Source: an uncultured virus (IMG/VR IMGVR_UViG_3300042270_000151) (lineage: Duplodnaviria > Heunggongvirae > Uroviricota > Caudoviricetes). From it: a stretch of DNA of 64,000 bases. This document shows positions 1,363 through 44,517 of the stretch, one piece after another; position 1 is the stretch's first letter, and each line of letters begins with the position of its first letter. The notes beneath the pieces were generated by a model. It worked only from the letters and a program-made list of their open reading frames with translations, made no database searches and was not told the DNA's origin. The stretch lies in IMG/VR virus record IMGVR_UViG_3300042270_000151, positions 1-64,000 of that record; one strand, 5' to 3'. Made by a program: the position numbers and the translations under genes.

Positions 1363-2691
1363 ATGTTGAAAAATATACTTGCACAAGCGATTGCACAGGA
1401 AAGCCTTACCGATGACGTGGAGGTTTATAGCTTCATGGATGAAGAGGATTATGACCTCTCCAGTGAAGTCATCGCGTTGGAAGAAACCGCCGATGCCTTG
1501 GACCGCATGGGGTTTGCCCTTGAAGGGTTGTCGGATCTCTACCTTAAGATGGATGCGCGTCTTAAGGATACTGAGACTCCGGTTTCTATGGAAATGGGTC
1601 AGATGTACTATGACCAGGCCACTACTCTCCTCGCTTTCTGTGACGAGGAATGGCCAATCGCTACGCCTGCCTTCGAGTCTAATGATAGTCTCTCAGCTGA
1701 CTTGCATATCGCAATGGAGGGTGTCGGCGACGCAGTTCAGCGCGTGATCAAGAAATTCGGTGCTTTCTATGAAGGGTATATAGACGCCCTAAATAAGTTT
1801 GGGGACGTCTTCTTCGCACGCCTTAATGGTATTCAGAAACGCGTCGATGCACAGCGCGCGGATTTGAGTCGCATTGGCAATACGCCTAAGAATGATACCC
1901 TCAAAATCAAGAATGGTAAACACCTCTATATCCCGGGTAAGAAGCAGGCTATCCCCACTGCTAAGGATGTGGCTGATTTCACAAAGGGTATCCTGCAGTG
2001 GAGCGATATGTCCGCCCTACGGAATGCGATGGACGTAGCTATGGAGGCGTCTAAGGATGAAGGCAATACCAACAGTCGCAATAACCGCATGGAGGCAGCA
2101 CAGAAAGCGATACTGTCTCACTATAACCTAGCGGTTACCACAGAGCCTAAAGGTATCTTCGGAGCCATGTCCAGCGCACTGTTCAATAAAGAGTTCATGG
2201 CCTCCAAGCAGGCTTTGATGGGCGGCATCCGCATCGTGGCCTCAATCGGTAAGCCCAAGGGTGACTCTACTGAGTATGGTCGTCTTTACCTATCCGATAT
2301 GAAGGCGGACTACCGTGCAAACAAACAAGCGACGAATAGCTTTGTGGCAAGTGCGCCCTCTAAAAAGGATCTGGAGGACCTTAACCGTGCTACAGGAGAT
2401 CTCATTAAAGGGATGATTAACCTGAAGCAGGAGCATAAGGCAAACATTGCAGCGATGGACAAACATAAGGCATCCTTGGATGGCTTACGTAAACTCCCCC
2501 CTCGTCAATTGGCACTGCTGTTAGCGGGTAGTTTTGTACCGAATATGGGTGCTGCAGCTTTTACATATATGCTAATGCGTCGTTGGAGCAATACCTTGAG
2601 CATAACCTCTCGTGAACTCTATCGTCATGGTGGATCAGTAGCCTCTGCATTGGTAGGGGCTAGTGGTAAAGGGATAAGTAATCTTAAGTGA
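1363..2691 (+). CDS. putative virion internal head protein (phiKZ-like paralog family)
   Basis: Acidic N-terminus with several S/A/G-X-E sites (AQES, ALEE, ALEG, AFES, AMEG) followed by a basic body. Confidence 0.7.
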   Translation: MLKNILAQAIAQESLTDDVEVYSFMDEEDYDLSSEVIALEETADALDRMGFALEGLSDLYLKMDARLKDTETPVSMEMGQMYYDQATTLLAFCDEEWPIATPAFESNDSLSADLHIAMEGVGDAVQRVIKKFGAFYEGYIDALNKFGDVFFARLNGIQKRVDAQRADLSRIGNTPKNDTLKIKNGKHLYIPGKKQAIPTAKDVADFTKGILQWSDMSALRNAMDVAMEASKDEGNTNSRNNRMEAAQKAILSHYNLAVTTEPKGIFGAMSSALFNKEFMASKQALMGGIRIVASIGKPKGDSTEYGRLYLSDMKADYRANKQATNSFVASAPSKKDLEDLNRATGDLIKGMINLKQEHKANIAAMDKHKASLDGLRKLPPRQLALLLAGSFVPNMGAAAFTYMLMRRWSNTLSITSRELYRHGGSVASALVGASGKGISNLK

Positions 2692-2703
2692 TAAACTATT
2701 TAC

Positions 2704-2733
2704 TATACTCCTCCCTCTAAGGGGAGGAGTATA
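2704..2733 (+). terminator. intrinsic terminator-like hairpin
   Basis: TATACTCCTCCC/GGGAGGAGTATA 12-bp stem just after the stop codon, followed by T-rich sequence. Confidence 0.75.
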
Positions 2734-2782
2734 TGTATTTATTTATTTTAACAGTAGTCTGTGATGATGTACTAAAAAGAGC

Positions 2783-2998
2783 CCCTTCCCAGCTACGGCT
2801 GTGGAGTGACTAGACTGAGTGAAACGAAGGATAGGAACGGAACAGGTAAGTAGATGAGGGAGGGACATTATTTACCTCAGTATAGGGTACTACCCATACT
2901 CTCTACTACTACTGTACTAATAGGTATACTGGTATAACCCTATATCCCCATTAGAGGGATATAGGGGAGTATGACTGTTAGTAGGATAGAGGGTAGTA
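2783..2998 (+). other. structured non-coding region (GA-mismatch hairpin plus long imperfect inverted repeat); candidate replication origin or ncRNA
   Basis: About 400-bp ORF-free gap with two large fold-backs (2783-2864 and 2888-2998). Confidence 0.5.
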
Positions 2999-3028
2999 TA
3001 GACTATGGAGTCGTAGTATCTACAAACC

Positions 3029-3036
3029 TATATTAC
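3029..3036 (+). promoter_or_regulatory. phiKZ-type early promoter TATATTAC
   Basis: AAACCTATATTAC upstream of the ligase; CCTATATTAC recurs five times in intergenic positions. Confidence 0.7.
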
Positions 3037-3052
3037 TGTTAGGATGACATAG

Positions 3053-4879
<1,827 letters not shown>

Positions 4880-19613: not shown

Positions 19614-20288
19614 ATGGCTAACCGTAAAGCAGCAGAAGCCGCTGTAATTAAATATCTAAAGGAATTAGAGGGCGGTGACGTAAACGCAGCCCTGTACACC
19701 GCATTATTTAAATCCATGTCAGACGCTGAGTTTGAACGCTGGATTGATGCGCTGGATAGTGGACGTGAAACCATCCACCTCATTATCCCCAATGCCAATG
19801 ACATCAAACTTGACATTAACCGCACCGTTAAAGTTGGCGAAGAGTTAGGCGCAAAGTTCTTTGAACAACTCGTCTTAACTGACCCCGAGACGGGTGAGGA
19901 ATACACCACGCCATTATCGTACATGGTGCTGGATGTGGCCATGCGCCGTCAGTCACAGCACCTGATTAAGAAGCAGTCGATTCCTGAGGATGACCGGGTT
20001 GTTGACCATCTCTCTGGCCAGGTAACCGGCGACTCTAAGGGCGGGAAGATCTCACTGCCTGAGTTATTGGTGATCGAGTCTAAAGGCTTGGAAACCAGTC
20101 TACTGGAGCTGATTAAAGTACGAGGCGGTGATGATGTAGCCTTAGCCGCTATGAAGGAAGCTATTCGGGAATCCGGTACCTTTAACGTTAAAGCGATCGA
20201 AGCCTTAGGCAGCAAACCTACTGCAATTAAAACGCTACGCGCATTACTATTGTCAGTACACCTGGATAACACGATTGGGGAGCAGTAA
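19614..20288 (+). CDS. virion RNA polymerase subunit, beta C-terminal part (phiKZ gp149-like)
   Basis: GQVTGDSKGGKISLPE...GL...LLELIKVRGGD parallels the RpoB C-terminal GQR.GEME...ELLT.KSDD region. Confidence 0.8.
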   Translation: MANRKAAEAAVIKYLKELEGGDVNAALYTALFKSMSDAEFERWIDALDSGRETIHLIIPNANDIKLDINRTVKVGEELGAKFFEQLVLTDPETGEEYTTPLSYMVLDVAMRRQSQHLIKKQSIPEDDRVVDHLSGQVTGDSKGGKISLPELLVIESKGLETSLLELIKVRGGDDVALAAMKEAIRESGTFNVKAIEALGSKPTAIKTLRALLLSVHLDNTIGEQ

Positions 20289-21004
20289 TGGTTTCAGACA
20301 AGGAGTATCACACCGTCTATGCGTCTATGGATAGCCTTCTCGATACCCGCATGGGTACGGTGGCTCGCATAGATCAATCGGTAGCCGCGGATATCCTGAA
20401 AGACGACCGGTACCATAGTCGACGTACGAATGAGCTTTGGCTGCTCGATGATCGGATCAATCCGGATGCCTTTAAACGGCTGTGGAAAGACCGTGACATT
20501 GAGACCCTTAAGCTCTCCATGGCTACCCTTGTCGTACCTCTACTGTACGACATCCAGCAGCGGTATCGGAGCAAGGATGCCATTAAGCCGGATATCGTAA
20601 CCCTTAGATTGATTGTTAATACGCACCCGTATCGCCTTACGGACGAAGAGCAATCGCTTTATTGTGATATCTTACGCTCCGTCACACAGATCGACGATGT
20701 TCGCCTAACCAGTACGTCAGTCGACTGGCTCACTCCAACCACGCTTGCACAGTACAACACCTTCATCTGGCATGACCTGGATGAATGGTTCACGCTACAC
20801 GGTGAAGCTTTAACCGAAAACCCTATGCCGAAGTTGGACTTCTACGCACCGGAGATCTTACAGTGTAGCGGTGAGGTACCGCCTCAAACCTTTATCGGCA
20901 ATGCCTTTAGAATGCTCTTTGCCGAGTTGGCGGTATTTGAGTTGATGCCCCTGCGTTACTTTAGCCTTATGTTGCCTGACGATATAGAGCCCACTGACCC
21001 CTGA
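20288..21004 (+). CDS. hypothetical protein (core-block position)
   Basis: TAATG coupling; N-terminal DSLLDTR motif. Confidence 0.65.
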   Translation: MVSDKEYHTVYASMDSLLDTRMGTVARIDQSVAADILKDDRYHSRRTNELWLLDDRINPDAFKRLWKDRDIETLKLSMATLVVPLLYDIQQRYRSKDAIKPDIVTLRLIVNTHPYRLTDEEQSLYCDILRSVTQIDDVRLTSTSVDWLTPTTLAQYNTFIWHDLDEWFTLHGEALTENPMPKLDFYAPEILQCSGEVPPQTFIGNAFRMLFAELAVFELMPLRYFSLMLPDDIEPTDP

Positions 21005-35573: not shown

Positions 35574-37040
35574 ATGTCCAATAGAAGTAAACCTTTCAAC
35601 ATTGCCCTGCTAGAAAATCGTCTCCAACGCATTGCGGGTCTCTTACCCGTTAAGTCATTAGAGATGTTTGTGCAGGGTCGAGAGTTCCATCCTACAGGAC
35701 TCTACTCTGATCTAATCTTTGGCCCTGTCGGTAGTGATAGCCGTATGACCCGCCATGGGTATATTAACTTACGGACTCAAGTTCTCCACCCTAAGGTCTT
35801 TGAAGACATCACCCGGTTAAAGAGCCTGTATAAAGACATTATGCAAGGCCGTGCCTATGCGATCTGGGACGCTGAGCTAAAAGACTTCGTACGGTCAGAC
35901 GTACTCGAAGGTGAAACTGGCTATGCCTTCTTCATGAAGCACTTTAAAGAGATCGAGATTCCCCGCACGAAGTCCTATCGTCGTGATATCGTCATTGACC
36001 TCATTAATAAGTACAGAGACAGGTCTGTCCTTAACTTTTTAATCGTCATGCCTGCAGGCCTTCGGGATCTGGACATTGATGAGCAAGATCGTCCGGTTGA
36101 GCAGGAGATCAATAAACTCTACCGTAAGGTGATTGCCGCTACCAACGGAATTTCAGAAGCCCTCGCCTTTAAGAACGACCCCGTGCTCAATGCGACGCGC
36201 TGGTCTATCCAATCCTCCGTTCAGCAGATTTGGACGATTATCATGGGGATGTTAGGTGGTAAACAGGGCTTCCTACAGTCTAAATGGGGATCTCGTCGAG
36301 TTGCCTTTGCTACAGCCAACGTAATTTCGGCTATGGATCCAGCGGGTTCAGATTTGGACGGACCGCGTAGCTTTGACCTGACGACGACACAGGTGGGAAT
36401 CTATCAGTTCATTAAAGGCACCGAACCGGTTATGACCGGCTTTCAAATGCCTAATGGCATTGCACGGAACCTGATTGCAGAGGCCGATTATGAGCCCTAC
36501 CTCATTGACCCTAAAACCCTTACCTCTCACCGGGTGAAGTTAGATGAGTCGGAGCGTGTGAGTTGGGCTACAGAGGCCGGTCGAGCTAAGCTAATTAAAG
36601 CCTTCAGTGAGGTCGAACGCCGTCATCGACCCATTATGGTAAGCGACCATTACCTTAAACTCGTCTATCAGGATGAGAAAGGCTTCAAGCTATTGGACTC
36701 AATCGCTGAGTTACCCGAGGATAAGGATGCCTCTACAGTACGTCCTCTAACCTGGGCGGAGTATTTCTACATTGAGGCCCAGCAGTACGTACATCGCGTG
36801 CGCTGCTACATTACCCGATACCCAGTTACAGGTCAGGGTTCTACGTATCCCTCTACGGTGTACTTGCGCTCTACCGTAACCTCACACATTCTACACACTT
36901 ATAATGAAAGTTGGGAGTTGGAATCAGAAGGACAGGTGTACCCTGAGTTTCCAAACACTGTCGGTAAAAGCGAGTTTATCTCAACTACGATCGTAAGTCC
37001 ATTTGCGTTAGTCGGCCTTGGGGCTGACTACGATGGCGAT
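35574..37040 (+). CDS. virion RNA polymerase beta-prime subunit (phiKZ gp180-like), exon 1
   Basis: GLYS..IFG, PAGLRD, KQGF...KW, TRYP and catalytic GADYDGD at the exon end. Confidence 0.9.
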
Positions 37041-37090
37041 AAAAAGTTATAACCATCATATTGTATAAGTAAACTACAATATGGTGTAAT

Positions 37091-38335
37091 ATGTTTTACA
37101 AGTATAAGGACATAGAAGGTTTTGTAGAAGTACGCGGGCCCAACAATAACCGTGTATATGTGAATAAAGAAGGTTTGGTTCTAGATGCGAACGGGACTAA
37201 GCTAGATAAACGACTAGATGGCTCGGGTAACTCTATTGTCGATATTGATTTAGGTTACGGGACATCAGAGACACTTGTGGCAAAACTCGTTATTCTGGCT
37301 TTTAAACGTCCAGTAGATGACGTTATACCTGCAATTGTGCCCTTTAGCACAATTGGTGATAACGGCAATCTACACCCGAGTAACCTAGGATATAGGTTTA
37401 AAGATGGACCTATCGAGTCTAAAAGGTTTCCAGGATTTTACCACGTACCTATGGTTACCCGATACGTTATAAATAAGGACGGTGACCTGTTAAACAGTAT
37501 TACCGGACGACCCATTAAATGGGTCCAGGACATGCAGCTGGCTAATAAATGGCGAAATACCACTGGCGGCTATTGGTGCTGCGTCCTAGCAGGTGACGGT
37601 GGCAGTACTAGGGTTAAACGCCATCGAGCACTAGCGTATACCTTTCTTAATTACCCCGATAACGTGGACAAGTTAGACGTAAACCACATAGACGGCGTAC
37701 CCGGTAACGACAACCTTTCGAACTTAGAATTCTGTACCAGGTCAGAAAACTGTAGACATGCTACAGATAAAGGTCTAAGGGTGCAAGCTAAGCAGATAGT
37801 CATAGAGAACGTAGTCACTGGAGAGCAATTGAGATTTCCTAGCATGCACCGGTGTGCAGAGTACCTAGGTCTATACAGTGGCGAGACTGTCCGTTGGCGG
37901 ATAAACCAGGGCAAGGGTAAGGTGTATGACGGTTATAGATTTTGGATTGATGGGGTTGACCAAGGCGACGGATCCGTGTACGGCGTGCATTTGGAGTCAA
38001 ACGTTCCGTATAAGTGGCCTACAGTCGCGGACGCTAGTGCGGACACCGCCGCACCAACAAAGTCAATAATGCGGGCAACCAGAAGATCCAAGCCAAAACC
38101 TATAAATGGCTTTATTTTTAGCCTAGTCCCAATAACCGATCTAAATGTCGAAAAATGCCCATCTGTTAAACAGGTTGTGGTTTCAAATCGTAATGATGAG
38201 TCGGTTGTATTTAAAGGCTCTATGCGCGCGGCGTGTAATTATCTAAATACCACGGCTAGGGCTAGGATAACCAAAGAGCTAAACGAGTTGGGTCGTGTAG
38301 AATTTGGTCCTTATACTGTAACATATAAACTATAA
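37091..38335 (+). CDS. intron-encoded HNH homing endonuclease
   Basis: HRALA..F......LDVNHIDGVPGND.LSNLEFCTRSENCRHA, plus C-terminal NUMOD/IENR-like repeats. Confidence 0.9.
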   Translation: MFYKYKDIEGFVEVRGPNNNRVYVNKEGLVLDANGTKLDKRLDGSGNSIVDIDLGYGTSETLVAKLVILAFKRPVDDVIPAIVPFSTIGDNGNLHPSNLGYRFKDGPIESKRFPGFYHVPMVTRYVINKDGDLLNSITGRPIKWVQDMQLANKWRNTTGGYWCCVLAGDGGSTRVKRHRALAYTFLNYPDNVDKLDVNHIDGVPGNDNLSNLEFCTRSENCRHATDKGLRVQAKQIVIENVVTGEQLRFPSMHRCAEYLGLYSGETVRWRINQGKGKVYDGYRFWIDGVDQGDGSVYGVHLESNVPYKWPTVADASADTAAPTKSIMRATRRSKPKPINGFIFSLVPITDLNVEKCPSVKQVVVSNRNDESVVFKGSMRAACNYLNTTARARITKELNELGRVEFGPYTVTYKL

Positions 38336-38740
38336 CTATTGTCCAGCTGGGCGGTAACGCTCAGTCTGATCTCACCTTAATTGCTGGGAACCCCTAAAGC
38401 CTGTCTAGCAACAACATAGACCGAAAGGTCAAATGTGAGTGCGAGCGAAAGCTAGAGAAAATAGACAGGATTCGGTATGGTGATCGTAAGCCTAACCCGA
38501 TAAAGAATGGGCAATCAGCAGCGAAGCTTCTACGGATTGCTGTGAAGCAAGCTAGGAAGAACGTTCAACGACCATCCGGTAGCGCGGAGTAGGGCCCAAG
38601 CGGGCGGGTATATCCCTTAAATCGAAATAGGTGACCCCTCTAGACAACGGAGGGTGAAGATATGGTCTAGTATCCTAGGGAAAGCCTAGGGCGGCACGTA
38701 AGGGTGCGGGTTTGGCGTAGCGTCCAAACTGAATGAAACG
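38336..38740 (+). ncRNA. group I ribozyme core
   Basis: P AATTGCTGGGAA (38379), Q AATCAGCAG (38513), R GTTCAACGACCA (38563), S AAGATATGGTC (38657); P3 TCACCT/AGGTGA; P7 GACCA/TGGTC; P9 CCTAGG-GAAAG-CCTAGG. Confidence 0.9.
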
Positions 38741-38902
38741 AGAGTTTCCACACATTTTGTGTTTGCAGAGGATGCGGTGGCTGAAATTGACGCTAAGCTT
38801 AACTCAGTTGAGAACTACGTCGATGCCTCTGGGTCTTTAGCGAACGGATCAAACATAGAAACCATTGAACGCGTATTGCGTAGCTTCACTGGATTTAAGT
38901 AA
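38741..38902 (+). CDS. virion RNA polymerase beta-prime subunit, exon 2 (53 aa; spliced product 542 aa)
   Basis: RVSTHFVFAEDAVAEID...SFTGFK stop, in frame with exon 1; stop overlaps the RBS of the next gene. Confidence 0.82.
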   Translation, partial: RVSTHFVFAEDAVAEIDAKLNSVENYVDASGSLANGSNIETIERVLRSFTGFK

Positions 38903-38911
38903 GGAGTTACT

Positions 38912-41796
38912 ATGGTTCGGTATATCGAGTTTAAACGGAGCCTATGTGCCCGTACAGTCACCCAGCTCATGTCGCCCACCATCGCCGATACAAATACCAT
39001 CGCACTGCCCTATCACAGTGTTCTACACTTTATCGATGGGCCTGAGACGGGGATTCCATCTACCCATCCATTGATTGTAGGTACTGGACGGGTCTTTGTA
39101 CATCACGTAGAGGACCTGGTAGCCACAGCGGGTAATCCCCGTAAGAAGGCAGTGCCGCTGGAAGCCAGTAAACGGCAATATTTTAAACAGGCACAGGCGC
39201 CGATTACACGCAGTCGGGATTTAGATCGCAGTCTAAGTTACATGAAAGCCGCAGTCGCCTTTGATTATTCACTGGTTGAGGGTCAATACCTTTACCCCGT
39301 CAGCCGTACGGTTGAGATGGATAAGCTCAGCAACCGACTCTCGACCCTCTATGCACAGCTGTCAGTCGGTACTGAAGAAACCGTACACATTGTACCCCTG
39401 GCGCTGCCTGAGATGGTACCTACTCTGTCCGAACTCAATCAGTTGCCGAACCCTATTCCGATCTCCCGACACGAAAGATGGATGGACCTGAGTCGTCTCT
39501 TCATCCGTGAACTCTGGTTGGCCGTAGAGGACCCTGAACATCCACTACATGCCCTTAACCATGACGTTATGGTTGCCTGGATTGAATCGGGTAAGGTCTC
39601 TTTCTTACACATCAATGACTTTCTAACTTGGGGATTGGAGTCACCTAAAGAAGTTCGCAAATACCTGCTTTCTTCATTAGCCCGTATATTGGAAACCCGT
39701 ACGGTTACGGATACCGCAGAGAGTGTACCCGAGCGGGAACTGTCTGAAGAAGAGGTACTGGAAGCGGATGAGTCGCCTGCTGAATCCATTCTAGAGGTGA
39801 CCTCAGGACTGTATCCAGGTAGTGTTGAGGTTATCGGGGAAGACCACGTTAACCGTCAGGTTGAAGGGCTGGGTAGTAATGGCATGCTCAGTGCCGCTGA
39901 GCAGCGTCGTTTAAGTGAACTGGCTGTTCGATACAAGTCATTGCCCAATCCAGTGGGTGAGGGTACATTGGAAAACCTGATTACCTCTAAACCCGAAGCT
40001 GTTAAAATAGATTCCCGTAAAGAGAACTTACCTGAACGCCCCGCTGTCCTGGATAAGTCCATGTTGCGTTCTACGCTAAAGGACTTTGATCGCCGCTATG
40101 TCCAAGAGCTATTAGAGGCAGATGTCGCAGCTGCCGTGGTCTCGATTCAGAACGCCGGCGTTCTGGTTAAAGACTATGCGATTGAGGAGCGCAGCGATGC
40201 CCTTAACCACTATAAGGTCTATACCGTAGATTTAGTACCGATCGCCGGTAAGCCATCTAAGCTTACCTTTAAATTGCCAGTTGTAAATGAAGAGGGTATT
40301 TATACGGTTGCGGGTGTACAGTACAAACTGGACCACCAGAAGTTTGACCTACCCATTCGAAAGGTCGCCCCAGATAAAGTATCCCTGGCCTCGTACTTCG
40401 GTAAAATCTTCGTAACCCGTAATCCCAAAGCGGTTAACAACTACAGTCGCTGGCTGCTCAGTAAGATTACCAAAGCGGCCATGGATGTAAACGACACAAC
40501 CGTAACCGACATCGTTTATACCACTAAGCCCCTTCCACAAGAACGCCTTCCACGCCCCTTTACAGCCGTCGCCCGCGAAGTCGCCGAGTTTACCAGTGGA
40601 GACTACCGTTTTCGATTTACGGTGGGTGATTGGGTTGAGGTCTATGGGGAGACCCTTACGGTTAAAGCGGTACAGGCTAACCTAACCCCCTGTGGTCAAC
40701 CTACAAACCGTAGAAAGGCCATGCTCGCCATGTCCATGGATGGAATTCTCCATCTCGTTACCGATACCGCTATAGAGTCTATAGGCTCGCTTGTCGCTGT
40801 CGTTAATCCTGCATGGGGAGACGGACCTATCGAGTTTGCGGATATTAATGTCTACGGTAAAGCGGTACCTGTTGCTTTGGCCTTAGGCTACCTCATGGGG
40901 CTGGATAAGGTAATCGCTGCACTGAAGATCCCCCATCGTTGGATTGATAAAACTACCCGTCCTGCGATGGAGCCCTACGAAGAACGTATTCGATTCCAAG
41001 ATGAGTCGCTGATTATCGATACCCGTCATGCTCAGGGTGCCATGGTACTCAGTGGTCTACGGGCGGTAAAAGGGATCACCAGTACCCTACCTGCGTCGGA
41101 CTTTAACCGCAAGGGTGTCTACGGCGAGGTCCTAGCGTCTATGGGGATTGGTCGTCACATTCTACGTGAGCTTGACCTCATGTTGGATATGTTCATTGAC
41201 CCCATTACCTTAGAGTTGCTTACTGAGATGGGGGAGCCAACCGAATTCATCCCCCTTATTCTACGGGCCGCTGAGCTGCTAACCACCGATGAACATACCG
41301 AGGAAATGGACAGTTCTCAAATGCGCATTCGTGGGTATGAGCGTTTCTCAGGTTTTGTATATAACCAACTCGTACAAGCGGTACGGGAACAGCGCGCTGC
41401 CGGTCACCCTGGCAGCGCACAGGTCTCCTTACGTCCGAATGCCGTGTGGGACGATATTCTCAAAGACCCAGCAACCATGTTGGTTGAAGAGTCTAACCCG
41501 ATCCATAACCTAAAGGAAAAGGAGAGTGTCACCTACACTGGCCAGGGTGGTCGATCTGCAAAGACCATGGTGAAGCGTACCCGTATCTTCCATCCGAACG
41601 ACATGGGAACTATCTCTGAAACAACACCAGACAGTGCGAAGGTTGCAATCCGTACCTACATGACCCCCAATGCGAAGGTTAACTCACTAAGGGGAACAAC
41701 CGATCGCTTTGATTTTGATAAAGATGGTACCAGTAGTCTGATCTCTACAACTGGTTTACTAGGTCCAGGTTCGGACCTAATGGACCCAAAGCGCGT
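38912..41796 (+). CDS. virion RNA polymerase beta subunit (phiKZ gp178-like), exon 1
   Basis: DLPIRK, L.SYFGK, R.RGYERF, NPI..LKEKE..TY.G.GGRS, G.ISE.TPDS.KV, DPKR. Confidence 0.9.
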
Positions 41797-41859
41797 ACGA
41801 TAGGTTAAATTGTCACTATGACTGTGTATGGTATGTATTAACAACATGAGTCATGGACA

Positions 41860-43035
41860 ATGGAAACCGAATTTAAAGTCTTAAAAGAATATCCAAATTT
41901 CCGCATTTATCCGGATGGCAGGGTCTACGACGTGGCTAGGGGAAAGTTTAGAACCCCAGTAACGTCACGTGGATACGAGTCAGTTTCGGGGATTAAAGTT
42001 CACAAATTAGTCGCGCTGGCATTTGTGGACAATCCTGATCCTACTACCAAGACACAAGTTAACCACATTGATGGCGTGAAGTCAAATAACCACTACACAA
42101 ATTTAGAATGGTGTAGTGGATCTGAGAACCGACAACATGCCATTGACACCGGTTTAACTCCCCATGGCCAGGAAACAAAGGTAACGTTCCCCGACGGCAC
42201 TGTAAAGATATACCCCACTAGAGTCTCAGCGTCCAAAGCGATTGGCATTCACCCCAGTACAATGGCTAGAGGTGTCAGAAAAACGAACCCTTGGAACCAC
42301 AACGGTACCCTTGTTGAGGTTGCCGACTTAGGTAAGAAGCCTACAACGGCTGTACTCTGGAGAAACCTAAGAACAGGTGAAGAGGGGCGGTTCAATAAAG
42401 TCGTTGACGCTGCCGCTGCAACAGGTCTTTCTGTTTTCACCATCCAGCAACGCTTAGCTGCGCCACTAGAGCTTTTATTTAAAGATGGCCTTCAGTTCAG
42501 GCGAGAGCGTGAATTTGTTGGATGGGTAGACGTCTCTGCACACCTCGGCATTTATGAGAGGGAGAGTTGGCGGAAAGCTAAAGTCGGTGAGGTTAAGCTT
42601 GCAGTGAGTAGAGGCGAACATCCGGTATACCATGGCAATGAAGTGCTAGTAAAATGGCTATGCACGGGTGAAGTAGTGGAGTACTCGAGTCAGAATGCCG
42701 CCGCTGAGGCGTTAGAGGTGACTTCTGGTACGATGACAACACACTTATCCAAAGGTGACAAGCAGCCAGTTTTTAAACTTGGTGACCGCTACGCTCTGGT
42801 TAAACGAAAGTCTGACCCTAACCCATGGCGCACTGTAGACGACCCCTTCGTAGATTGGGCTAAGCGGATGCGAGGTCGACCATTTCTGGTGACTGCCGTG
42901 GATACTGGGAAGCAGAGATACTTTGCGTGTATGGGTGACTGTGTTAGGGAGCTAGGCATCAGTTACAATGATGTACGTCGTGGGCTTAAGCATCCAAATG
43001 TGGAATATTACGGATATTACTTTAAAGAACTTTAG
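41860..43035 (+). CDS. intron-encoded HNH homing endonuclease
   Basis: VHKLVALAFVDNP.....VNHIDGVKSNNHYTNLEWCSGSEN.QHA, plus repeated small DNA-binding modules. Confidence 0.92.
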   Translation: METEFKVLKEYPNFRIYPDGRVYDVARGKFRTPVTSRGYESVSGIKVHKLVALAFVDNPDPTTKTQVNHIDGVKSNNHYTNLEWCSGSENRQHAIDTGLTPHGQETKVTFPDGTVKIYPTRVSASKAIGIHPSTMARGVRKTNPWNHNGTLVEVADLGKKPTTAVLWRNLRTGEEGRFNKVVDAAAATGLSVFTIQQRLAAPLELLFKDGLQFRREREFVGWVDVSAHLGIYERESWRKAKVGEVKLAVSRGEHPVYHGNEVLVKWLCTGEVVEYSSQNAAAEALEVTSGTMTTHLSKGDKQPVFKLGDRYALVKRKSDPNPWRTVDDPFVDWAKRMRGRPFLVTAVDTGKQRYFACMGDCVRELGISYNDVRRGLKHPNVEYYGYYFKEL

Positions 43036-43409
43036 TGCGCCCCAGTAACAGAAGGTACTGGGTACGACGTCTAATTGCGGGAAAGCCCTTTGAGCGTTAA
43101 CTACCAACCCATGCTGGAAACAGTGACCGGTGTATATTACACCCCATGGGGGCGAAGCTAACCACTTCGATACGGTAAAAAGGTTAACGTGTGGGGTAAC
43201 CGACGCAGCGAAGTCCCTAAGGCTATGGCTAAGGGATGAGTTCAACGACTAACCGAGTTGCTTCGGTGTAGGGCCACAAGTCAGTGGTGGCTCCAAACGG
43301 CGTCCGTCCTTAAGAGTAAGGGCGAAGATATAGTCTGCTCCCTGGGGAAAGCCCAGGGCGGGTGTCTGAGCACACCGGCTACAGAGTCGCGACTGTAGTG
43401 GACAGAAGG
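43035..43409 (+). ncRNA. group I ribozyme core
   Basis: P AATTGCGGGAA (43073), R GTTCAACGACTA (43240), S AAGATATAGTC (43325); P2 CCCAGTA/TACTGGG; P3 GACGTC/GGCGTC; P7 GACTA/TAGTC; P9 CCCTGGG/CCCAGGG. Confidence 0.92.
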
Positions 43410-44517
43410 AAACTTGGGATCAGTACAGCAATCGTCTATGGTATCGGCGAAAGATGCCACGCTTACGCCTGTGCGCACCGGGTATGAGCAGGTCATTGCT
43501 GATCGTTGTGGGGATAACTTTGCGTATATTGCCAGTAAACCTGGTAAGGTCAGTAAGGTGAGTCGTGACTCTATAACGGTTCAATATGAGGACGGCGAGA
43601 CGGTTACCCTGCCCTTGGGTATCCGACACGGTAAAGCCGCGGGTGCTGTCCTACCTCATGATATTGTAACGGACTTACAGGAAGGGGATAGTGTAGCAGA
43701 AGGGTACGCGGTTACGTGGAATACACATTACTTCCAACGGGACCGGTTAAATCCAAACGGAGTCTCGATGAAGGGTGGGGTAATGGCGAAGGTAGCCTTT
43801 ATGGAGAATGCGGATACCTTGGAGGATGGGTGTGCAATTTCCCCTGCACTTTCACAACGTCTGTCCACACCTATCAGTAAAATGAAGACGGTATTGGTGC
43901 GTTTCGATCAGGCTGTCTCTAACATTGTGGGTGTCGGAGAAGAGGTTGACCTAGACGTACCGCTGTGTGTGATCGAGGAGGCTGAGTTAGCCACACTCAG
44001 TCAAGGGGACGATGCACTGCTAGGACTGTCTAAACTTGCAAACCAAACACCTAAGGCCGGGTTTGTTGGTAAGGTGACGCGTCGTGAGGTGGTGTATTTT
44101 GGAAACCCTGACGACATGCATCCGAGTTTAGCTGAGATTGTGAAGGCGGATACACGTCAGCGTAAGCGAGAGGTTAGCTATAAAGGGAGCTTACCGGCTG
44201 CAACCGGTGAAGTAAACGAGCCTACCTTTGTCGGGGGTCAGAAGCTAACGCCTAATACCTTGGCCATTACGTTCTACATGGACCATGACATTACCGCAGC
44301 GGTAGGGGATAAAGCGGTATTCGATAACGCGCTGAAAACCATCGTAGGTCGTGTCATGGAGGGACGTAATGAGACCGCCTCGGGTGAGCCGTTAGACGCA
44401 ATCTTTGGGTATCAGAGCGTAGCAAACCGCATACTCTATAGCTGCACCATTGTAGGGACCACGAACAAAGCGTTACGGGCACTGAACCGACATGTAGTGG
44501 ACGTGTATCGTAAATAA
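43410..44517 (+). CDS. virion RNA polymerase beta subunit, exon 2 (spliced product 1330 aa)
   Basis: PVRTGYE, TLEDG..IS, VGDK......LK, DAIF - RpoB-type motifs. Confidence 0.88.

Follow-up and report, generated by a model that had tools for sequence, protein, structure and literature searches.

Background

Tandem G-A mismatches and other purine-rich symmetric loops are known from structured RNAs, in which one or two of them occur as local motifs. According to the available part of PMC2724281, 5'GA/3'AG is one of the four tandem mismatches with favourable free energy, and all-purine tandem mismatches constitute the commonest class in known RNA structures (47%). Here we analyse an 82-nucleotide (nt) hairpin at positions 2783-2864 of a 64,000-nt stretch of DNA (hereafter the window, i.e. 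positions 1 to 64,000 of the IMG/VR record IMGVR_UViG_3300042270_000151, an uncultured Caudoviricetes virus; the record spans 132,191 base pairs (bp) and is estimated to be 47% complete). The central part of this hairpin is a rod, each step of which likewise corresponds to a 2x2 GA/AG or a 3x3 GGA/GGA loop, but the phage rods string together three or four such steps. The evidence presented below shows that the element is a selected, strand-specific folded unit, which is present as two paralogous copies, conserved above the local background and covarying in its Watson-Crick blocks.

Several other described systems resemble this element in part. The DNA mini-hairpins at single-strand initiation sites, such as the complementary-strand origin of phage G4, are distinguished by G-N-A triloops and sheared G-A pairs; they are 7-10 nt long, belong to single-stranded DNA (ssDNA) phages or plasmids and are recognized by primase. 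The phage element approaches them in its C-G-closed G-N-A triloops (seen in a second genomic copy and in two metagenomic homologues, L092 and L097, described below), its sheared-type GA steps and its restriction to one strand, but it is an 82-nt rod in a double-stranded DNA jumbo phage, and its first copy has a GAA loop closed by U/A. With Rho-independent and small RNA (sRNA) terminators it has in common a G+C-rich outer stem, a pyrimidine- or U-rich tail, an upstream A-rich run and a location at the end of a transcription unit; however, it has about four times the usual stem length, with purine steps interrupting the stem, its tail falls short of the U-tract threshold of the terminator scan, and a canonical terminator is already present 50 nt upstream. 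The CsrB, RsmY and RsmZ sponge RNAs carry GGA in hairpin loops or single strands. The phage element is similarly endowed with GGA (five in 82 nt in copy 1 and about 10 in about 75 nt in L097), but these lie inside the rod, and the element has no match in Rfam; and as copy 2 uses mostly UGA steps, it is GA and not GGA that is the constant.

Small RNAs of the phiKZ-like, nucleus-forming phages are, to our knowledge, almost unknown. A limited search of the literature and a search of Rfam recovered no description of a periodic purine-step rod, in line with the preliminary description of this DNA, which had noted none in phiKZ-like phages; the available part of the differential RNA sequencing (dRNA-seq) study of phiKZ reports one predicted 75-nt sRNA, which is unconfirmed (PMC8244752). 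Among these kinds of structure, the tandem G-A loop, the terminator hairpin and the hairpin repeat are familiar ones, and the periodic purine-step rod, kept as twin copies in a phiKZ-like lineage and absent from Rfam, is a new variation on them.

Architecture and strand specificity of the hairpin

The rod (2799-2845) reads CTGT-GGA-GT-GA-CTA-GA-CT-GA-GT-[GAA]-AC-GA-AG-GA-TAG-GA-AC-GGA-ACAG, i.e. Watson-Crick blocks alternate with GA/GA or GGA/GGA steps spaced every 2-3 bp, with about 40% of the rod being non-Watson-Crick. Beyond the rod the stem is extended first by CTAC (2793-2796) pairing with GTAG (2850-2853) and then by CCCCTTCCC pairing with GGGAGGG, both of which belong to the minimum-energy fold computed with ViennaRNA. 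Folded as RNA, the + strand reaches -31.3 kcal/mol as against -17.1 +/- 2.8 for shuffled versions (z -5.13), with none of 200 shuffles being as good. The same computation on the - strand yielded -15.7 kcal/mol (z -1.55), a value equalled by 12 of 200 shuffles, and given this difference between the two z-scores the strand asymmetry is real. With DNA parameters the + strand adopts the same fold at -9.0 kcal/mol (z -1.89; 9 of 200 shuffles as good), a figure to be read with the qualification that the DNA parameter set may undervalue G-A pairs.

Both strands of the 132-kb genome were scanned, with a purpose-written descriptor, for hairpins in which blocks of 2 bp or more alternate with GA/GA or GGA/GGA steps; just two with three or more steps were recovered, namely the above hairpin with four steps (copy 1) and a paralogue with three. 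Ten first-order Markov random genomes of equal size contained no hairpin with three or more steps and a single one with two. A seed-based inverted-repeat finder run on 2740-2900 did not report the rod. The preliminary description thus holds in its structural claims, having parsed the blocks of the rod exactly, read both outer stems correctly, proposed that the fold works on the + strand alone and predicted that ordinary inverted-repeat searches would miss it.

A smaller hairpin, CCCAGC-[UACG]-GCUGUGG, can be drawn within the 5' part of the element and might compete with the rod. It has a counterpart in all four phage versions of the element (CC(G)CAGC-loop-GCUGUGG, with local energies from -9.7 to -10.9 kcal/mol), the loop being CUA in copy 2 and in L092 and GAGA in L097. 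If formed, it would withhold the 5' strand of the base from the rod; its stem shows no variation and hence no covariation, so this competing structure is unproven. A further 15-nt pairing, 80% complementary, which the inverted-repeat finder does list, is possible between 2810-2824 in the 5' arm of the rod and 2871-2885 just past the tail. This was set aside, as copy 2 has no counterpart and positions 2877 and 2886 are polymorphic.

A second copy in the same genome

A short-word BLAST search of the spacer against the genome returned two matches near 130 kb, namely the 13-mer ATGTACTAAAAAG, which lies upstream of the hairpin, and a 79-nt repeat, which lies downstream of it. Between them, at 129918-129954 of the record, is a paralogous rod reading CTGT-GGA-GT-GA-AT-GA-AC-[GTA]-GT-GA-AT-GA-AC-GGA-ACAG, which folds at -27.9 kcal/mol (z -3.6) with none of 200 shuffles as good. 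Its base, CTGT-GGA-GT-GA...GA-AC-GGA-ACAG, is identical to that of copy 1 and its inner blocks differ. The two loci display the same layout throughout: an intrinsic-terminator-like hairpin of the upstream gene is followed by TTTT(A/C)ACA-N9-(G/T)AT(G/A)AT-GTACTAAAAAG, then by the C-rich/G-rich outer stem, the rod, a pyrimidine-rich tail and the 79-nt repeat, and finally by a CCTATATTAC motif before the next gene. The gene neighbourhoods of the two copies are different: copy 2 is preceded by an RNA polymerase (RNAP) beta-like gene, a gene for a 609-aa HNH endonuclease and a 117-aa open reading frame (ORF), and is followed by three ORFs without assigned function.

Conservation of the unit in close relatives

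A 195.5-kb IMG/VR contig of the same species contains exactly two copies of the element, and an 83.7-kb IMG/VR contig carries copy 2. The DNA flanking copy 1 in the 195.5-kb contig is 94.5% identical over 3,979 nt, with only four differences in the whole 397-nt spacer; the sole difference in the hairpin is 2842 A>G, which converts a U-A pair to U-G. As some coding stretches are equally invariant between the two genomes, this comparison is weak on its own.

A sharper picture emerged from contigs of four further sequencing runs, up to about 7% divergent, that were aligned to 2600-3200, the best-supported rows being considered; contig depth reaches about 600-fold in one run. Among these rows 2842 A>G is the only difference in 2759-2876. 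The preceding segment (2692-2758) accumulates at least seven substitutions and two or three indels, and the following one (2877-3088) many more. Positions 2754, 2757 and 2758 vary, and from 2759 onward no polymorphism is listed before 2842. On account of this contrast between the flanks, which bear substitutions and indels on both sides, and a single difference inside, the conserved unit is delimited as about 118 nt (2759-2876), comprising the stem together with 24 nt 5' and 12 nt 3' of it.

Distant homologues and covariation

Comparison by synteny failed beyond the species, since no relatives of the downstream ligase were found between its own cluster and 41% identity; relatives of the tail sheath do exist at 50-70% identity. 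Five related records were searched by BLAST with the 118-nt unit, and none gave a match. In G001 (IMG/VR 3300048591_000242, 202 kb), the closest full record with 69% tail-sheath identity, the neighbouring genes are not conserved. It has at 19860-20495 a 640-nt spacer of a similar kind, with several C-rich/G-rich hairpins, AAACCTATATTAC, a small hairpin that encloses a CTAAAAAGAGC motif, and no GA-step rod.

Homologues were obtained by scanning metagenome contigs with the rod base only (CTGTGGAGTGA-N5-35-GAACGGARCAG), which returned six loci. Three of these (L094-L096) are chance matches without a hairpin. One (L093) comes from GC-rich DNA and is taken up in the next section. The other two, L092 and L097, have in common with copy 2 the 5' flank, the CCGCAGC segment, the G-rich arm and the tail, and are accordingly homologues of the phage unit. 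L092 is a copy-2-like unit in different flanks, in which the AT/AT block has become CT/AG, a compensatory change from A-T to C-G, with the distal GA/GA step retained. L097 reads CTGT-GGA-GT-GA-CT-GGA-AC-[GGA]-GT-GGA-AG-GA-AC-GGA-ACAG; here the distal step has changed from GA/GA to GGA/GGA on both strands at once, and the loop from GTA to GGA. We infer that its contig (81,159 bp) is the one that encodes the 62%-identical tail sheath P0132. The units sit in different gene neighbourhoods in each phage. An intrinsic-terminator-like hairpin precedes the unit in three of the four phage loci read, including copy 2 and L097, where it is in the equivalent place; in L092 the upstream ORF reaches the unit without a separate terminator.

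In an alignment of seven rows all 56 cells of the counted pairs are paired, a figure that has to be discounted inasmuch as six of the eight counted pairs are fixed by the search pattern itself and the comparative sample, with four independent phage versions, is small. The two pairs outside the pattern both covary, one being CG in four rows, GC in two and AU in one, and the other UA in five and CG in two. When the 3' partner was slid by 1-3 columns, only 31-54% of the cells paired. In the homologues found, therefore, the paired blocks covary while the purine steps persist, as the preliminary description had expected of a selected fold. Two other patterns contributed nothing: the exact geometry of copy 1 matched six loci in viral contigs, one being a close relative and five coding repeats, and a generic copy-2 geometry was uninformative, with none of 119 loci among the matches listed forming a hairpin.

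A related module in a bacterial repeat

The rod base also recurs outside phages. In L093 (JAESFN010001164.1) the element is on the - strand, with its GA module enclosed by a 12-bp outer stem, and a scan of species genomes recovered L098, from the metagenome-assembled genome (MAG) OZ255620.1 (G006) of an acetobacteraceous bacterium. Both have the identical rod base, a GC/GC block, GCA or GAAT loops and outer stems of their own, 12 and 5 bp long respectively. An ORF about 170-200 nt downstream of L093, whose start includes GIDVSKDTLDV, was considered as an IS110-type transposase and dropped, as Pfam and PDB sequence searches with its 55-159-aa fragments were empty.

The core pattern occurs 15 times in the Acetobacteraceae MAG (8 forward, 7 reverse), as against no occurrence of a reversed-pattern control. 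The module proved to be the 3' hairpin within a dispersed repeat about 110 nt long, which has the terminal inverted repeats CTAGAGCAT...ATGCTCTAG (e.g. L107:1400-1540). This repeat contains two hairpins, and its 5' half alone is present in at least 40 copies. Reading 26 loci anchored on the 5' half, and hence without bias toward the GA module, we found the hairpin in 24 of them, with the tandem GA step kept in all 24; in place of the left GGA, however, most have GCA or GCC, so that two G-A mismatches are separated by a C-G pair. A sample of 80 other Acetobacteraceae genomes gave mostly chance-level matches.

The resemblance to the phage element is considerable. The bacterial repeat, a dispersed hairpin repeat of the REP/BIME (repetitive extragenic palindromic/bacterial interspersed mosaic element) or MITE-like (miniature inverted-repeat transposable element) kind, is non-coding, intergenic and strand-asymmetric, and it has the base CTGT-G(G/C)A-GT-GA...GA-AC-GGA-ACA(G/T) with the conserved tandem GA step; neither it nor the phage element matches an Rfam family. 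It differs, however, in being present in 15 to at least 40 copies, in its terminal inverted repeats, in combining one GA step with a mostly GCA/GGA loop and in its second, unrelated hairpin, whereas the phage element has two copies and three or four steps, lacks recognized terminal inverted repeats and differs in its outer stem and its flanks. The 22 bases that are identical between the phage rod base and the MAG hairpin belong to a minority variant of the bacterial repeat. Given this restriction to one variant of a multi-copy family, and a search space of about 10^12 bases, the shared module and design are as likely to reflect convergence as common descent.

Genomic context of the two copies

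The features of the locus are collected in Table 1. The hairpin lies in a 397-nt spacer (2692-3088) between two genes on the + strand, of which the upstream one is presumably a late gene. The phiKZ-like affinity implied in the preliminary description is supported by PF12699 in this gene and, elsewhere in the window, by a phiKZ-type tail sheath and by RNAP beta genes that are split and of the multisubunit kind. The relationship to cultured phages is nevertheless distant: no DNA match to either hairpin locus was found among them, their best identities are at most 41% for the tail sheath and at most 37% for the ligase, and no match to the internal head protein was found. Genes for thymidylate synthase, RNase H and a UvsX-like protein are situated within 15 kb of copy 1, and an SbcC-like gene was also noted in the window.

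Table 1. Positions of the features at and around the GA-step hairpin (window coordinates unless stated otherwise).
Feature	Position	Strand	Evidence and remarks
Upstream gene, phiKZ-type internal head protein	1363..2691	+	PF12699 phiKZ_IP, E 1.2e-17; phrog_2497
Intrinsic-terminator-like hairpin of the upstream gene	2704..2733	+	13-pair stem and TGTATTTATT tail, T-rich run after; terminator scan
Conserved 5' flank, CTGTGATGAT-GTACTAAAAAG-AG	2759..2782	+	ATGTACTAAAAAG identical in the paralogue
Hairpin: outer C-rich/G-rich stem, CTAC/GTAG stem and GA-step rod	2783..2864	+	-31.3 kcal/mol as RNA (z -5.13), this fold being both the minimum-energy and the centroid structure
Possible competing 5' hairpin	2788..2804	+	local fold, -9.7 kcal/mol
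GA-step rod	2799..2845	+	direct reading and step-hairpin scan
U-rich tail ACATTATTTACC, end of the conserved block	2865..2876	+	polymorphisms resume at 2877 and 2886
79-nt repeat	2888..2966	+	92.4% identical to 130078-130156 of the record; contains the hairpin CCCTATATCCCC...GGGATATAGGGG
Early-promoter-like motif AAACCTATATTACT before the ligase gene	3024..3037	+	contains the recurrent CCTATATTAC
Downstream gene, NAD-dependent DNA ligase	3089..4879	+	PF01653 E 4.9e-71, PF03120, PF12826; phrog_3869
Second GA-step unit, 3-step rod	G000:C1:129876-129990 (L112:5876-5990), outside the window		paralogue of the 2783..2864 unit; G000 is the 132,191-bp record

The conserved 5' flank is a candidate promoter or 5' leader, or else the 5' strand of a closing helix with 2865-2871, a helix that is present in the fold of 2752-2882. 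No terminal inverted repeats were recognized where the conserved block ends on either side; its 5' ATGATGT can pair with its 3' ACATTAT, which we read as this closing helix. Pyrimidine-rich tails comparable to ACATTATTTACC follow the rods of copy 2, L092 and L097. Contig pieces with other flanks map onto the 79-nt repeat, which also contains TACTAATAGGTATACTGGTATAA; the 5' arm of its CCCTATATCCCC...GGGATATAGGGG hairpin resembles the CCTATATTAC motif.

The CCTATATTAC motif is found at 12 sites in the 132-kb record, all on the + strand (window positions 3029, 5002, 14152, 21478 and 52128, and seven others elsewhere in the record), mostly 40-70 nt 5' of start codons. The early promoters of jumbo phages are described, in the part of PMC7598289 available to us, as AT-rich conserved motifs of about 10 nt near -10. 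CCTATATTAC agrees with this description and is probably the consensus of the early (virion RNAP) promoters of this phage. Some further features of the window concern other genes. The same leader, ACAAAGGAAC(C/T)TAAAACA, stands directly before the ATG of each of two structural genes in succession (340-352 and 1350-1362) and may be a conserved late 5' untranslated region or ribosome-binding context. The RNAP beta-type genes (35574-44517) are interrupted by two HNH endonuclease ORFs (37091-38335 and 41860-43035), with a phrog_3148 match split into 38912-41803 and 43414-44517, and this arrangement suggests homing-endonuclease or intron-type insertions.

Searches for known RNA families were negative. 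In Rfam 15 the best match over the element was SNORD62, with 23.8 bits against a threshold of 39 (E 0.11), and nothing better was obtained with copy 2, L092, L093, L097 or L098. ARAGORN identified no tRNA or tmRNA gene in the whole window. A kink-turn (box C/D-like, L7Ae-binding), in which tandem sheared G-A and A-G pairs adjoin a three-nucleotide bulge in one strand, is likewise not apparent, for all GA steps are symmetric 2x2 or 3x3 loops without a bulge, and the C/D-type match is sub-threshold.

Functional interpretation: a proposed small structured RNA and its alternatives

The preliminary description had taken the hairpin for a selected single-stranded signal (a priming or origin element, a nicking site or a hairpin promoter) or a structured RNA. 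Its duplication, conservation and covariation support the general part of this proposal, that of a selected, strand-specific single-stranded element, but none of the functions named could be shown. The hairpin promoter has nothing in its favour: promoters of the N4 type have a 5-7-bp stem and a 3-nt loop and are read by a single-subunit virion RNAP, whereas the present hairpin is 82 nt long and the RNAP genes seen in the window, in which no search for an N4-like RNAP was made, are of the multisubunit beta type.

The interpretation to which we lean, tentatively and with less than even confidence, is that the unit is a stand-alone structured small RNA of about 100-120 nt, with the rod serving as a protein-binding scaffold or decoy. 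What we infer here is the RNA nature of the molecule, the presence of a promoter and a terminator of its own, and a function of this kind. Transcription would proceed rightward from the conserved 5' flank and end at the U-rich tail, and nearly the whole RNA would then be a single rod of 2-4-bp Watson-Crick blocks alternating with tandem G-A (5'GA/3'AG) or GGA/GGA steps. The purine steps would leave the helix thermodynamically stable as RNA while limiting the fold to one strand, so that the duplex DNA would not be palindromic. They would also distort the helix periodically, which might make it a poor substrate for enzymes that need regular double-stranded RNA and at the same time offer a distinctive surface to a protein. 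The most likely job of such a molecule would be that of a stable protein-binding scaffold or decoy RNA produced during infection. Stability without a DNA palindrome or regular double-stranded RNA is plausibly what the purine steps provide under any of the RNA interpretations alike.

Several observations lean to RNA. The context of the hairpin, with co-oriented genes, a terminator upstream, a conserved 5' flank and a U-rich tail, is one of them; at each of the four phage loci the element is downstream of and co-oriented with the upstream gene, as a terminator would be. The sole natural change seen in the stem, from U-A to U-G, gives a wobble pair in RNA, the 5'GA/3'AG step is favourable in RNA, and the loops UACG (UNCG) and GAGA (GNRA) of the competing 5' hairpin are typical of RNA.

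A number of results weigh against a stand-alone small RNA. No sigma-70 promoter was called upstream of either copy (-35/-10 elements 16-18 nt apart); the TTnACA-N9-TATAAT arrangement has a spacing of only 9 nt, which is wrong for sigma-70, although copy 2 has TGgTATAAT and copy 1 TGtGATGAT, both of which are reminiscent of an extended -10 element. The late TATG motif of phiKZ, as given in the available part of PMC7598289, is absent at the element, and TGTACTAA-type motifs do not constitute a general promoter motif in the phage genome. At the 3' end, the intrinsic-terminator scan (at least 5 T in 8) lists 2704-2733 only, the rod tail ACATTATTTACC falling short of its U-tract threshold. None of the 24 listed runs containing the stretch is an RNA run. 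Searched as an antisense sequence, the conserved 5' stretch yielded no target in the phage; besides the two elements themselves, the complement of the 13-mer ATGTACTAAAAAG has only 2-mismatch matches in the 132 kb. The closest full record, G001, has neither a BLAST match nor a GA-step hairpin, and a relaxed purine-step scan found no convincing analogue in it; the core pattern is equally absent from two records with 50% tail-sheath identity (G002 and G003). Part of the conservation could reflect recombination history, given the low divergence in some coding patches. Lastly, stable DNA mini-hairpins typically have G-N-A triloops. The apical loops of the element (GAA, GTA and GGA) belong to this type, with a closing C-G pair in three of the four versions, and fit DNA mini-hairpins equally well.

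The unit could instead act in cis as an RNA element, for instance as a second, oversized terminator, a 3'-end stabilizer or an insulator, which would intercept transcripts reading through from the late operon ahead of the early promoter of the next gene, with the GA steps permitting a very long stable stem that is neither regular double-stranded RNA nor a DNA palindrome. This we hold to be unlikely. Both copies lie between a terminator-like hairpin and a CCTATATTAC early-promoter-like motif; the C-rich 5' arm, G-rich 3' arm and AU-rich tail recall the other terminator-like hairpins of the phage; an upstream A-rich run can pair with a downstream U-rich run; and in L092 the upstream ORF abuts the unit, with no separate terminator. 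Yet only two of the 12 CCTATATTAC sites have the unit, a good terminator is already present 5' of it in three of the four loci, and the tail lacks a sufficient U-tract. Moreover, the 24 nt 5' of the stem are conserved as strongly as the stem itself, which would be needless for a plain terminator.

A single-stranded DNA signal on the + strand, such as a hairpin extruded on the non-template strand or the lagging-strand template at a replication start (a priming site or R-loop origin) or at a nicking or recombination site, appears comparably unlikely. Stable DNA mini-hairpins typically contain tandem GA pairs in Y-GA-R context, and R-GA-Y and Y-GA-Y are not favoured contexts for sheared pairs in DNA. 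The contexts of copy 2 are of the Y-GA-R kind and its loop is the C-G-closed triloop C(GTA)G, as in L092, with C(GGA)G in L097; in copy 1, by contrast, several steps are in R-GA-Y or Y-GA-Y context and the loop is U(GAA)A, which is not closed by C-G. Similarly, copy 1 adjoins genes of replication and repair (the ligase and those named above), but copy 2 is beside the HNH endonuclease and unassigned genes. The presence of two copies on the same strand per genome of about 199 kb would suit such a signal, as would the similar module in a bacterial dispersed repeat with terminal inverted repeats, a kind that moves as DNA. Against it, the fold under DNA parameters is barely better than shuffles (z -1.9, with the above proviso on GA pairs), and the 2842 change gives T-G, a mismatch in DNA. 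The cumulative GC skew follows gene orientation only and does not turn at either copy, although in a phage this is weak evidence.

Returning to the small RNA, a more far-reaching version of it may be envisaged, which we regard as rather less likely than either of these alternatives. Here the rod would define a new class, that of 'periodic purine-mismatch' RNAs, whose design would be common to jumbo phages and bacterial dispersed repeats and which one host factor would read; in the phage it would exist in two states. The 5' hairpin CC(G)CAGC-loop-GCUGUGG (with UACG, GAGA or CUA as the loop) would form first during transcription and compete with the rod base, and rod formation together with the captured protein, possibly a host RNA-binding regulator or a sensor in defence against viral RNA, would thereby be switched.

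It is improbable that the unit is merely a domesticated or selfish hairpin repeat of the MITE/REP type, acquired from a host and with no dedicated phage function beyond, for example, stabilization of RNA ends. The recurrence of 22 bases of the rod base in the Acetobacteraceae repeat hairpin of about 110 nt, with its 15 core copies and at least 40 copies of the 5' half, is what would suggest such an origin, along with the related hairpin in another GC-rich contig (L093), the different gene neighbourhoods of the units and the absence of the unit from G001. However, the bacterial left GGA is mostly GCA or GCC, so that the 22 identical bases are those of a minority variant and may have arisen by convergence. 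The many copies expected of REP or MITE elements are not seen either, there being two in the 132-kb record and two in the 195.5-kb contig, a number that is stable between strains; neither terminal inverted repeats nor target duplications were observed next to the phage unit, and its conservation is strong relative to the adjacent spacer.

That the hairpin arose by chance, or is the shadow of a small gene on the - strand (an ATG-started ORF of 41 codons at 2743-2868 overlaps it), is very improbable indeed, as chance is contradicted by the shuffle and random-genome statistics, and the ORF was rejected because length differences of 10 nt in the rod of the paralogue and 2 nt in L097 do not preserve the frame, while the changes seen preserve pairs and are not codon-like.

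Implications

The unit provides a concrete candidate for a non-coding RNA in the phiKZ-like lineage, being conserved, duplicated and covarying, and constructed by an unusual building rule. The regular spacing of G-A steps yields a long, stable helix on one strand that inverted-repeat finders overlook. Were it to turn out to be only an elaborate terminator or a captured repeat, it would be of modest interest. If, on the other hand, it is true that one factor reads both the phage rod and the bacterial module, the non-coding RNAs of phages would be linked to the poorly understood hairpin repeats of bacteria.

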